Below, in pieces: positions 27,601-30,600 of a stretch of 64,000 nucleotides of DNA. The position numbers are program-made. Source of the DNA: Pseudomonadota bacterium (lineage in GTDB: Bacteria; Bdellovibrionota; Bdellovibrionia; Bdellovibrionales; SG-bin7); NCBI GenBank assembly GCA_034439715.1, contig JAWXAY010000094.1, forward strand, positions 47,008 to 111,007. Direction: 5' to 3'. Every line of letters begins with the position of its first letter. Within the stretch, counting starts at the first letter, position 1.

Positions 27601-30600
27601 GGAGCTGGCTACAAGATATCAGAATTACTATCCGGGGAATTTGGTATGCGACTACTGTCGGCAAGCTACATCGAATCAGGCACCTCGGGAGCGACTACTT
27701 ACCAAGAAGATGTAGATAGCTTTTCGTTAGTAGGATTTGTCGGTGCCCTAAAATACGAACTCTAAAACCCTAAATCTATAGCAAGTCTCACTGACTCAAG
27801 CACATCTAATTCGCCGAAGCCAAGTTTGGGGTCCCAAGTGTAAACTCGTGTAAATGCCGACTTCAACAATATGTCTCTCTTCTCTTTTGCTGTTAACCTA
27901 GGATTGGCCTGCGAAATAAGTGCCAACGTACCGGTTACAAAGGGTGCGGCCATCGAGGTGCCAGTCCATTCCCCCCAAAGATTTCCCGGCAGTGTCGAAA
28001 TAATTTTATCTCCGGGCGCGCTAATTTCAGGTTTTAATAAAGTAGAGCCGTTAAAAACAACAGGTCCTCGACTTGAAAATTCGGTTGCAACTCCATTGGC
28101 ATCAGTTGCTGCTACCACAATCGTCGTGGGATAGTTTTTAGGCTCAGAAATAGAGCCTTCCTCAAGCCCATTATTTCCAGCAGAAAAAACAGCAATAATC
28201 CCCAGCGAATCCCAAACCTGAAGGGCTCTATAATAAAGTTCAATCTCTGGTAAGTTGTCTTGACCCCAAGAGTTATTAACTACAAGCGGCCAATCGTTAG
28301 TGCTCGGATCGCCATCGGGGTCGGTTAAAAACTCCATGGCTCGAAATGCCGTTTTGACATCATGGATCTGTACTGAGATTATTTCGCACTTAGGTGCTAC
28401 TTGGGCCACTATTCCCGTAACGTGTGTTCCATGTCCCGAAAAATCTGAAGCCCTAGATGGAGCACCTAGATCAGGGTTATAGAAAATTTTTATTTTTTCT
28501 TTCAGAAACTCGTGGTCTGCATCCACTCCCGTGTCGATAATACCAACTTTTACTCCATGACCAGTGATCTCAGGATAAAAGGCATTAACGATGTTCAGTT
28601 TAATGTTTTCTGCAAAATACTGTGCTTTAGGGGCAGTGGGTTGCGCTGATTGAACGGTTTCAAATTTAAAGGGTCGATTAAAAAAAATACTTTTGATGTC
28701 TTGGTTTTTAAGAAGTTCAGCCAAGATTTTTTGATTTATTTTTGCATAAAAACCGTGGGTGATCCAAAGTGGTGTGGCATTGATATTCCCTAAATTCTTT
28801 AGCTTCTTTTTCGTCAAGGCTTTTAACTGGGAGATGCTTAAAGTTGCAAGGGACTCGGTTATATCAAATATCGCAATTATCTCTACTTCAGGAGAAGCGG
28901 CTAAAGTTTTAATGACCATAGGGTCAATTACTGCTGCCTGGGCAAACCCAATAAGAGATAGACATAAAAGTATGAATTTCATAGTACTTTTCCTATAAAC
29001 AAGCCCATTTTTAAGTAACACGGCTAGAGGTTAAATAGGCACACAAATTTTTTGCTGGTGAAAAAAAGATATGCTAAAAGACCGTCAATGGTTAAATTGA
29101 GTGTAAATATAAATAAGATTGCGACATTGCGGAACGCCAGGGGAGAAACAAACCCGAATGTGCTAAAGGCGGCTTTAGATATCGAGTCTTATGGTGCCGA
29201 TGGTATTACTGTTCATCCGCGGCCCGATGGTCGTCATATTCGCTTTAGTGACGTTTTCGACCTAAAAAAAAATATTAAGGTTGAACTTAATATCGAAGGC
29301 TATCCTTCCCACGAGTATATTAAATTAGTCTCTGAAATAAAACCAGCACAAGCGACTTTAGTGCCAGATCCCCCAGAAGCTTTGACTTCAGATGCCGGCT
29401 GGAATGTTAAAAAGAATGAAGCTTTTTTGTCAGCCGCAGTTCAAAAATTAAAACCATCAGGCGCAAGAATTTCGTTATTCATAGATCCTTTGAATGTTTC
29501 CACGCAGGAGTTGGCAATAATAAAGTCTTTAGGAATAGAGCGTATTGAGCTTTATACAAAGCTGTATGCTGACGTTTTTCATTCTAAAAAACTCCAAGAG
29601 ACTTTAGAGTTTTATAAAAAAGTGGCGCGTGAGGCGGAAAAGGTGGGCCTAGGAGTGAATGCGGGACATGACCTAGATCTTAAAAATCTTGGTTATCTGG
29701 TGAGAAATATCCCCGAGCTCTTAGAAGTTTCTATTGGGCATGCTCTAATTTGTGATGCCCTTAATTTTGGTCTTAAGGATACAGTCCAAAAATATCTACT
29801 GGCCGCTAAGGGTTAAAAACACCAGAAAAAATTTTCAGATAGTAAAAAGACGCCAATTTTGCGAAAATAACTAGTGTTATCAAGTGTTTGTAATTTTTAC
29901 AGTGAGTCCAAAAAATCCCCTAAAAAATTGACACATCGCGTATAATGGCCGTTAAATAGAACAAAATGAACTCGTCGGTCGTCTCGTCTATCGTCGCGAA
30001 GGTAATAGTGAAGATAATTTTAATCAGCTTAATTTTAATTTGTGAAACTCTGGCGGGATCAATTGCTTTCAGCGCCGAGGAGGTAAATTTTGTTGAACCA
30101 GTGGGAGGGTTTGATTTCGATTTTTCGCAAGGACCCCCTCAAGTTCACGATGTGTGGTTTGCTGAAAATCATTACACAGCAGAAGAGTGGAAATCAGCGG
30201 CCATTGCAGGATACGCTAATCCCTTTGTCGAAGAGGTTACATTAAAGCCCCTTGTTAAAAATGGTAACTCTCATATTATTGCCATGAAAACCGCTTTCGT
30301 TATTAGGAAACCCATTACTTTTATAACAAGAGAAAAATATTTATCACCTGACTTTCACATAAAGACAAATCCCTCTATAGAAGAAATGAAGGTAATCAGC
30401 CAAGTCCCGCTAATTTTTGATACCAAAACAGGTATTTTCGGTTTCATGGAACTGAATTCATTGGTACATTTTTTATATTTTGATGAAAACGAAATTCAGG
30501 CGCGGCCCAATTTGCAGCAGATCACAAGGTATCATGGATTAACCAAAGTCCCACCTAAATTCCTAATTTATCGGTATGCTGAAAAATTCAATCGCATTCT

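Follow-up and report, generated by a model that had tools for sequence, protein, structure and literature searches.

One known route to pyridoxal phosphate is that of Escherichia coli, in which Epd, PdxB, SerC and PdxA on one side and the deoxyxylulose 5-phosphate (DXP) synthase Dxs on the other supply PdxJ, which is followed by PdxH. DXP synthase is pursued as an antibacterial target and is regarded as the sole natural point of access to DXP-dependent vitamin B6 synthesis. Several ways around Dxs have been described, namely suppressor mutations in AceE or RibB, overexpression of YajO, the MTA-isoprenoid shunt, which consists of a RuBisCO-like protein and a cupin, and the action of xylulokinase on 1-deoxyxylulose (PMC3424233, PMC10663253). 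In the sections of PMC3424233 drawn on here, an E. coli dxs null mutant was rescued by single substitutions in AceE or RibB, and purified wild-type PDH formed 1-deoxyxylulose from pyruvate and glyceraldehyde; wild-type aceE and ribB failed to complement the mutant in a test that demands a flux at the level of isoprenoid synthesis. According to the sections of PMC10663253 drawn on here, 181 species lack Dxs although their MEP pathway is otherwise complete, and an alternative probably exists; the strings 'pyridox' and 'Bdellovibrio' do not occur in the main text of that paper.

The window analysed in this study is a stretch of 64,000 nucleotides from a draft genome of the order Bdellovibrionales (assembly GCA_034439715.1, contig JAWXAY010000094.1, positions 47,008 to 111,007). 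It carries a pdxJ gene in a genome for which no Dxs could be detected. In the literature covered, which did not extend to subscription journals, we came across no report that these predators retain PdxJ and PdxA while lacking Dxs.

Vitamin B6 and isoprenoid genes of the genome and its order

The pdxJ gene (positions 29088 to 29816 of the window, forward strand) is intact, starts with an ATG at 29088 inside an open reading frame spanning 29052-29816, and encodes a pyridoxine 5'-phosphate synthase of 242 aa belonging to the Bacteroidota-type subfamily. The protein matches the models NF003626 (320.1 bits, cut-off 222) and TIGR00559 (247 bits, cut-off 192.75) over its full length and exceeds both curated equivalog cut-offs, in agreement with the survey's finding at this position; PF03740 scores 282.2 bits (cut-off 24.5), and residues 1-239 are covered. 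Eight solved PdxJ entries match its sequence end to end, the nearest being 6w6a (E=2e-53), and the E. coli structure 1ho1 is found at E=1.9e-38; identity to E. coli PdxJ is 38% by tblastn. It is predicted to be a working, canonical PNP synthase that condenses DXP with 3-amino-1-hydroxyacetone 1-phosphate. No other enzyme known to consume DXP was found in the genome.

Both partners of PdxJ in the DXP-dependent pathway, PdxA and PdxH, are present. PdxA, previously listed as cut by a contig end, is indeed encoded, and the gene, which an assembly gap divides, proved to be complete across two contig ends: C11:4-330 corresponds to profile positions 1-118 (38.7 bits) and C65:2-604 to positions 117-319 (208.5 bits). 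It is placed after two genes of the PpiC type that we label surA-like from their sequence, and surA-pdxA is also the gene order in E. coli. PdxA occurs in 148 of the 151 genomes of the order. PdxH scores 226.9 bits (cut-off 180), as expected from the survey. No PdxS was found in the source genome at E<=0.01, and with it no PdxS/T route, nor does any kinase of the PdxK/PdxY family exceed its cut-off there; a full-length match to this kinase family exists in only one of 101 genomes of the order. As far as gene content can tell, PdxJ, PdxA and PdxH are the only recognisable route to pyridoxal phosphate in this organism, which would therefore need both DXP and 4-phosphohydroxythreonine from sources other than Dxs and SerC/PdxB.

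The 4-phosphohydroxythreonine branch, left open in the survey, was examined and is missing in the source genome. SerC was detected neither with TIGR01364 at E<=0.001 nor by tblastn, ThrB was not found, and tblastn with PdxB yielded only matches of 25-29% identity to 2-hydroxyacid dehydrogenases; the match to Epd is only the GapA-like gene beside pgk. The substrate of PdxA is consequently unaccounted for as well. At the less sensitive threshold of E<=1e-15, SerC was found in 0 of 42 genomes of the order, but likewise in none of the genomes from two families that possess Dxs (f14, 0/5; f18, 0/6), so that its absence is not tied to the loss of Dxs.

With the Dxs model TIGR00204 (cut-off 465.95 bits), which exceeds its cut-off in 10 of 14 control genomes, the best matches in the source genome reach 142.9 and 93 bits. 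All seven matches are partial and lie within transketolase or E1 genes, and E. coli Dxs used in tblastn retrieved only these same genes. Dxr is absent at E<=0.01, no IspD, IspF, IspG or IspH was detected by tblastn with the E. coli K-12 proteins at E<=1e-3, and ThiG, ThiC, ThiE and ThiH were not found. Isoprenoid synthesis is represented by a mevalonate operon (C92:284-5465), in which type-2 IPP isomerase (354 bits, cut-off 281) and HMG-CoA reductase (332, cut-off 260) exceed their cut-offs, and diphosphomevalonate decarboxylase (160, cut-off 171) and mevalonate kinase (110, cut-off 163) remain below theirs. These results reproduce what the survey had reported on Dxs, with the same scores and controls, on the MEP and thiamine genes and on the mevalonate operon.

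The survey's claim for the whole order holds too, and the pattern is wider. None of 151 genomes of the order (124 of good quality) has a Dxs above the cut-off, the best match scoring 207.7 bits, and PdxJ is present in 141 of them at E<=1e-30 and above its cut-off in 132. PdxJ without Dxs is also found in families of the phylum outside the order; families with this combination include f7, f9 and f11 of the order as well as f21, f24 and f25, and for comparison we used families without PdxJ (f15, f17, f30) and the Dxs-bearing f14 and f18. A genuine Dxs that was missed, be it too divergent or located in unassembled sequence, is very improbable. The source genome (3.26 Mb) is a draft of 111 contigs with 95.7% completeness, and the six-frame scan with the Dxs model did not flag an AceE-like gene described below. 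However, many of the 151 genomes without Dxs consist of a single contig, Dxs scores 551-833 bits wherever it is present in the phylum, and every match in the source genome can be traced to a transketolase or an E1 subunit, with tblastn in agreement.

Conservation and replacement of PdxJ

pdxJ is under strong purifying selection and is not a relic. Pairwise comparison of 17 genomes from a single Dxs-less genus gave 136 pairs, of which the 28 with 0.05<dS<1.5 had a median dN/dS of 0.037 (range 0.005-0.105), and no internal stop was seen among the listed matches of the order (141 PdxJ, 148 PdxA). An alignment of 41 PdxJ sequences from Dxs-less and 20 from Dxs-bearing genomes contains 35 columns with a conservation of at least 95% in each of the two sets, including E. 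coli N9, R20, H45, R47, H52, E72, T102, E153, H193, G215 and H216, and the PdxJ of the window keeps the 35 columns common to these 61 other sequences. The residues which we take, from the E. coli structures, to be catalytic or phosphate-binding (E72, H45, H193, E153, R20, R47, H52, T102, G215 and H216) all fall into such columns and are identical in E. coli. No column of the alignment separates the Dxs-less from the Dxs-bearing set.

In quick IQ-TREE trees, a deeply separate type of PdxJ was found in families f1, to which the source genome belongs, f2, f5, f12, f13 and f16. It is 52-60% identical over the full length to PdxJ of Bacteroidota and nests among these sequences. The native type is located in a glmM-pdxJ-nnr-tsaE cluster and adjoins glmM in 29 of 30 loci, and the Bacteroidota-type copy lies outside this cluster; at the 41 pdxJ loci inspected, only housekeeping neighbours were seen (tilS, ftsH, cdaA, glmM, nnr, tsaE, iscR, cysteine desulfurase and mnmA). 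The trees and gene neighbourhoods indicate that in part of the order, the source genome included, the native pdxJ has been swapped for a Bacteroidota-type copy. A further replacement is seen in genome G086 (99% complete), which lacks PdxA and PdxJ and instead contains pdxR-pdxS-pdxT (PdxS 499 bits, cut-off 395; PdxT 159 bits, cut-off 106). In the order, foreign genes have taken over the function of PdxJ, which has not simply disappeared.

Outright loss does occur in the reduced 1.2-Mb genome G136, in which PdxA, PdxJ, PdxH, PdxS and PdxK are all missing. This observation would suit PdxJ and PdxA as relics on their way to disappearance, a reading to which we give practically no credit and which is contradicted by the low dN/dS, the lack of internal stops, the unchanged conserved columns with their presumed catalytic residues, the foreign replacements and the position of the native-type gene in a housekeeping cluster. 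The survey had taken retention as an argument for function, and dN/dS, conserved columns and the exchange for pdxR-pdxS-pdxT in G086 bear this out.

A functional PdxJ could also do without DXP if PdxA and PdxJ acted on other substrates or had another role in Dxs-less lineages. Such a change might be reflected in PdxA, which scores just below its equivalog cut-off in 149 of 151 genomes (205-290 bits versus 290.35), and in the PdxJ of the window, which reads N and K at the positions of E. coli D11 and H12. These two residues, however, are ordinary Bacteroidota-type sequence, and a true Dxs (760-804 bits) is present in all five tested Bacteroidota genomes with this type of PdxJ; nor is Dxs-less PdxJ set apart by any column. 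The placement of pdxA behind the surA-like genes resembles the order in E. coli. G086 and G136 have each lost both PdxA and PdxJ, and since a PLP synthase takes their place in G086, PLP is indicated as their product. We therefore regard a changed role of both enzymes as distinctly improbable. A functional PdxJ that depends on DXP from a source other than Dxs is very probably what these genomes contain.

Candidate sources of DXP

Within the window, a gene for a divergent AceE-like ThDP E1 enzyme of 906 aa (positions 50532 to 53252, reverse strand) was examined as a candidate; it reaches 111 bits with the aceE model TIGR00759 (cut-off 859.9) and 53 bits with Transketolase_N. Its distribution does not support such a role, with orthologues in the PdxJ-less families f15 (13/14) and f17 (28/29) and none in the PdxJ-bearing, Dxs-less families f21 (0/42) and f24 (0/10), and we do not count it as part of the system. 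It has the wild-type L and E at L633 and E636, the two E. coli suppressor sites covered by the comparison because the region of Q408 could not be aligned. A stand-alone pair of E1 alpha and beta subunits (C75) is similarly present in PdxJ-less f15 (14/14) and f30 (4/4) and absent from f21 (0/42).

The survey had correctly described PdxJ, PdxA and PdxH as kept without a detectable Dxs or MEP pathway and had proposed the transketolase on C29 (677 aa) as a possible DXP-forming enzyme. This second part is not supported as a general answer: most families of the order possess an orthologue, as do 40 of the 42 genomes of f21, but none occurs in f7, f9, f11, f24 (0/10) or f25 (0/3), all of which have PdxJ and no Dxs. 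Aligned with human transketolase, the protein displays transketolase-like motifs, and Dxs shares several of these motif residues. As it is the only full-length transketolase, a role in the pentose-phosphate pathway is the plain reading. A split transketolase and a second E1 pair (C80) are situated among sugar-modifying genes including a DegT-type aminotransferase, and the split type was counted in the survey in only 34 of 383 genomes. None of these ThDP candidates (E1 alpha/beta, the AceE-like enzyme, transketolase C29) is distributed as one common solution would require.

The described bypasses were likewise searched for in the source genome. No RuBisCO-like protein of the MTA-isoprenoid shunt was found at E<=0.01, the only FGGY kinase is GlpK (705 bits; XylB model 190, cut-off 380), the best match to YajO has 26% identity over 155 aa and an orthologue is absent, and tblastn with PoxB revealed no ThDP enzyme of the POX/ALS type. 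RibB is present as RibBA, which keeps the wild-type G108 and D113 and has no suppressor-type change. As a further candidate, an FSA/TalC-type aldolase is encoded on C11 (306 bits, cut-off 246).

Since PdxJ is kept under selection and no known DXP-making gene was found, the source of DXP would be an unrecognised one. We favour an endogenous source of low flux over DXP derived from prey, which is its main rival: the substrate of PdxJ would still be DXP, made inside the cell. The amount of DXP needed for vitamin B6 is tiny, which together with the AceE and RibB suppressors, the 1-deoxyxylulose formed by wild-type PDH and the 181 species without Dxs makes an endogenous side reaction plausible. DXP might arise from such a reaction, for example of a pyruvate-decarboxylating ThDP E1 enzyme adding to glyceraldehyde 3-phosphate, or from a dedicated non-homologous enzyme, and the source could differ from lineage to lineage. 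Against this explanation count the failure of wild-type aceE and ribB to complement at isoprenoid-level flux, the wild-type suppressor sites of the candidates and the ill-fitting distributions of the ThDP enzymes. The full statement, a functional PdxJ in need of non-Dxs DXP together with an endogenous low-flux source, could in our estimation equally turn out right or wrong.

Alternatively, DXP and 4-phosphohydroxythreonine might be taken from Gram-negative prey, which make both, and imported in phosphorylated form, so that the predator would run only PdxA, PdxJ and PdxH. Such predators import phosphorylated nucleotides without breaking them down. The source genome lacks both feeding branches (no Dxs or Dxr; no SerC, ThrB or clear PdxB), and a single prey source would explain this joint absence more simply than endogenous sources would. 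The genome also encodes two transporters (on C52 and C33) that are assigned only at the level of the GlpT/UhpC/PgtP (organophosphate:phosphate antiporter) family; with TIGR00881 (cut-off 407.75) they reach no more than 181 and 134 bits. In the sections of PMC7529429 drawn on here, Bdellovibrio bacteriovorus is an in-silico auxotroph for pyridoxal phosphate in the iCH457 model, which speaks against an endogenous source, and cofactors are concluded to derive from prey. On the other hand, SerC is also undetected in the Dxs-bearing f14 and f18. Pathway intermediates would presumably be scarcer in prey than B6 vitamers, and the scavenging of two scarce intermediates would hardly sustain a dN/dS of about 0.04, the xenologous replacement of pdxJ or the switch of G086 to the self-sufficient PdxS/T. 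We thus consider supply from prey unlikely, though a serious rival to the favoured endogenous source.

A more far-reaching form of endogenous supply, which we put forward only tentatively, assumes undescribed enzymes in much of the phylum that are unrelated to Dxs and SerC/PdxB and make DXP and probably 4-phosphohydroxythreonine. If true, vitamin B6 synthesis would have a new, dedicated starting point, which could also account for other Dxs-less users of DXP. The whole order and further families of the phylum keep a DXP consumer under strong selection without the Dxs gateway, and parts of the order have re-acquired PdxJ from outside. An unknown DXP-forming activity and predators that harvest a pathway intermediate from their prey would both be new biology. 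Either option could be put to a direct test in cultured, genetically tractable Bdellovibrio, provided that the taxon named in the survey is right and that these bacteria are members of the same order, and the outcome would revise the published metabolic model with its auxotrophy for pyridoxal phosphate.

Comparison with known systems

The system shares PdxA, PdxJ and PdxH with the E. coli pathway, along with the conserved PdxJ columns listed above and the position of pdxA behind surA-like genes. It differs by the lack of Dxs, SerC, ThrB, a clear PdxB and a PdxK/PdxY salvage kinase. PdxS/PdxT leads to the same end product and stands in for PdxA and PdxJ in G086, but is absent from the source genome. 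The PdxJ itself is closest to the Bacteroidota type (NF003626; 6w6a), with 52-60% identity and a nested position in the tree; the tested Bacteroidota all have Dxs (5/5), whereas the source lineage has none.

The described Dxs bypasses have in common with our case that DXP is needed without Dxs, and the source genome possesses RibBA and an AceE-like E1. In contrast to these bypasses, both proteins are wild-type at the suppressor sites compared, and a RuBisCO-like protein, xylulokinase and a YajO orthologue are lacking. A similar situation is that of the 181 species, which also keep a DXP consumer without Dxs; in these Firmicutes, Actinobacteria and Alphaproteobacteria, as described in the sections drawn on here (PMC10663253), the consumer is Dxr with the MEP pathway. 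In the source genome, isoprenoids are derived from mevalonate and the sole consumer of DXP is PdxJ.

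The pdxJ gene and the B6 genes of the source genome

The pdxJ gene occupies 29088..29816 of the forward strand, where the ATG at 29088, within an open reading frame of 29052-29816, opens a protein of 242 amino acids. PdxJ profiles cover it from end to end (NF003626, 320.1 bits, cut-off 222; TIGR00559, 247 bits, cut-off 192.75), Pfam PF03740 scores 282.2 bits, and the closest solved structures are pyridoxine-5'-phosphate synthases throughout (6w6a, E=2e-53; E. coli 1ho1, E=1.9e-38). The neighbouring genes, encoding a methyltransferase, a family-less protein, an S8 subtilase (opposite strand), a second family-less protein and a squalene-hopene-cyclase-like protein, are uninformative about vitamin B6. 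Just downstream of pdxJ on the same strand, a family-less protein of 275 amino acids (29966-30793) overlaps the start of the cyclase-like gene (30771-32762; 169 bits, far under the cut-off of 431); in a mevalonate-using genome, this pair may represent an unusual triterpenoid cyclase.

The source genome is a 3.26-Mb draft of 111 contigs and 95.7% completeness, in which the window spans C94:47008-111007. The model of deoxyxylulose-5-phosphate (DXP) synthase, Dxs, gave seven partial matches in it, the best reaching 142.9 and 93 bits where the cut-off is 465.95, a score exceeded in 10 of 14 control genomes. On contig C80 these matches are an E1 pair and a split transketolase of a sugar-modification cluster; on C29, a transketolase of 677 amino acids; and on C75, a stand-alone E1 alpha/beta. 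No Dxr was detected in this genome at E<=0.01, nor were IspD, IspF, IspG or IspH by tblastn with E. coli K-12 proteins; the mevalonate operon which the survey's finding had placed on C92 is real. Since ThiG, ThiC, ThiE and ThiH were also not found, no DXP consumer other than PdxJ is known in the genome.

PdxH is present (226.9 bits, cut-off 180). PdxA, previously described as cut by a contig end, is indeed interrupted by an assembly gap, yet the gene is complete across two contigs. Its N-terminal third (C11:1-393, reverse strand, L045) lies at a contig end downstream of two PpiC-type genes, labelled surA-like from their sequence, and the remainder (C65:2-622, forward strand, L046) opens a contig on which a PgmG-like phosphomutase gene and uvrA follow. 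The two contigs are therefore neighbours in the genome, and the gene order on C11 matches the surA-pdxA order of E. coli. PdxS was not found in the source genome, and no PdxK/PdxY/ThiD-family kinase exceeded the cut-off; the best match (21 bits, in a frame of 517 amino acids) is probably the kinase-like domain of Nnr. Across the order, a full-length match to this kinase family occurs in only 1 of 101 genomes and partial ones of 29-63 bits in 20 others. By tblastn, ThiL, ThrB, ThrC, SerC and POX/ALS-type enzymes were not detected in the source genome, whereas RibBA was; these absences fit a broad dependence on amino acids and thiamine.

PdxJ without Dxs in the order and beyond

Dxs exceeded the cut-off in none of 151 genomes of the order, Bdellovibrionales according to the survey (124 of good quality; best 207.7 bits). 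PdxJ was recovered from 141 of them, 132 of which score above the cut-off, and PdxA from 148; none of the matches listed has an internal stop. Where Dxs is present in the phylum it is readily visible, as 58 of 201 sampled genomes reach 551-833 bits (families f14, f17, f18, f19, f22, f28 and part of f23). Outside the order, PdxJ occurs in 61 genomes of this sample from families without any Dxs-bearing member, for example f21 (39/42), f24 (9/10) and f25 (3/3), and in nine more that are Dxs-less members of f23; genomes sampled within a family are not independent. The pattern reported by the survey is thus borne out, and the paradox is wider than was stated there.

Four lines of evidence say that PdxJ is functional: selection, conserved columns, replacement by a foreign type and the fate of genomes that lost it. 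Within one Dxs-less genus (17 genomes), the median dN/dS was 0.037 (range 0.005-0.105) as computed from the 28 pairs, of 136, in which dS was not saturated. When PdxJ sequences of two groups (41 Dxs-less, 20 Dxs-bearing) were aligned with that of E. coli, conservation reached 95% or more in each group at 35 columns, including E. coli N9, R20, H45, R47, H52, E72, T102, E153, H193, G215 and H216, which are presumably catalytic or phosphate-binding, and no column separates the groups.

A quick tree search divided PdxJ into two deeply separated types. The native type follows the families and adjoins glmM in 29 of 30 loci, in the order tilS-ftsH-cdaA-x-glmM-pdxJ-(nnr)-tsaE-iscR-cysteine desulfurase-mnmA. 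The second type is carried by f1, the family of the source genome, and by f2, f5, f12, f13 and f16, at loci other than the native cluster; it is 52-60% identical to PdxJ of Bacteroidota and nests among these in the same kind of search (SH-aLRT 84-92). A true Dxs is present in all five tested Bacteroidota genomes with this type, which is therefore an ordinary DXP-dependent enzyme. Dxs is missing from every family of the order, and the simplest reading, with an inferred order of events, is that a Dxs-less lineage swapped its pdxJ for a foreign copy and retained it.

Some further observations concern these loci. A metagenome-assembled genome labelled Myxococcota (L099, DASPVU010000240.1:1-3772) carries a PdxJ 60% identical to that of the window and inside the clade of its family (SH-aLRT 92), by either a doubtful taxon label or a further transfer. 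At L057 and 18 other loci from many families, nnr, encoding the bifunctional NAD(P)H-hydrate repair enzyme, lies directly 3' of pdxJ and is followed by tsaE; YjeF_N-domain proteins have been linked to B6 metabolism in the plant literature. In three f5 genomes (L027-L029), pdxJ adjoins gloB for hydroxyacylglutathione hydrolase of methylglyoxal detoxification, a linkage conserved in f5 only.

Two good-quality genomes of the order are devoid of both PdxA and PdxJ. Genome G086 (99% complete) has PdxH and, in place of PdxA/PdxJ, a pdxR-pdxS-pdxT cassette with a MocR-like regulator (positions 4082-7173 of L187, G086:C14:7000-17500), which looks like pathway displacement by horizontally acquired genes. 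In the strongly reduced G136 (1.2 Mb, 95% complete), PdxA, PdxJ, PdxH, PdxS and PdxK-family proteins were not matched, and it presumably relies wholly on imported B6. Loss of PdxA/PdxJ therefore accompanies either a swap to another de novo route or the loss of all B6 genes in a reduced genome.

Candidate sources of the substrates

The known Dxs bypasses are inapplicable to the source genome: it yielded no RuBisCO-like protein, no xylulokinase and no YajO orthologue, and in its RibBA neither E. coli suppressor position departs from wild type. The window itself encodes a divergent AceE-like ThDP E1 of 906 amino acids (50532-53252, reverse strand; 111 bits, AceE cut-off 860) with no adjoining E2 gene, followed downstream on that strand by genes for a DUF829-like (49776-50528) and a type I phosphodiesterase-family protein (48381-49748). 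It is conserved at 47-66% identity across the order and in f15, f17, f28 and f31. Orthologues of it turn up in families that lack PdxJ but not in f21, f23 or f24, and it retains L and E at the E. coli suppressor sites; as a DXP source it is not supported. The stand-alone E1 alpha/beta shows a similar mismatch, since f15 and f30, which lack PdxJ, have it and f21 does not. The transketolase proposed by the survey comes closer, with orthologues through most of the order and in f21 but none in f7, f9, f11, f24 and f25. As each distribution is mismatched, no single candidate matches the PdxJ-positive, Dxs-negative set, and lineage-specific side reactions may be the DXP sources. On C80, the E1 alpha/beta pair and the split transketolase (C80:22756-25988 and C80:64923-66663; L001, L003, L005) lie inside sugar-modification clusters, the former flanking a DegT-type aminotransferase gene and the latter adjoining aminotransferase-like and sugar-transferase-like genes; these ThDP enzyme pairs probably make branched or acylated sugars. 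The source genome also carries two GlpT/UhpC-family transporters and an FSA/TalC-type aldolase.

The supply of the second substrate, 4-phosphohydroxythreonine, is likewise unaccounted for in the source genome. SerC was not detected there (TIGR01364, E<=0.001), PdxB gave only weak matches, to 2-hydroxyacid dehydrogenases, and Epd matched a GapA-like gene adjoining pgk. At E<=1e-15, a threshold which misses some SerC subtypes and at which controls are positive less often than at E<=0.001, SerC was found in 0 of 42 genomes of the order and was also undetected in the Dxs-bearing f14 and f18, while all 42 f21 genomes have a divergent SerC. Prey-derived DXP, with the predatory lifestyle taken from the survey, would explain this double gap more simply; we consider such a supply possible, if rather unlikely. 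Real de novo synthesis is indicated by selection that is both strong and long-lasting, by the regained pdxJ and by one genome's change to PdxS/PdxT.

Judged from sequence, PdxJ very probably works and would need DXP from a source other than Dxs. We favour an endogenous source, to which we would give about an even chance, feeding real de novo B6 synthesis; since B6 flux is small, an underground reaction would suffice.

In the literature searched, supplements aside, we found no mention of PdxJ occurring without Dxs. That predatory bacteria use mevalonate is already in print (PMC4646340, PMC5941755), and the iCH457 model lists pyridoxal phosphate among the in-silico auxotrophies of B. bacteriovorus (PMC7529429). 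Among other bacteria, PMC10663253 reports 181 species that have the MEP pathway and lack Dxs, and in E. coli, according to PMC3424233, PDH E1 and RibB are close to making DXP.
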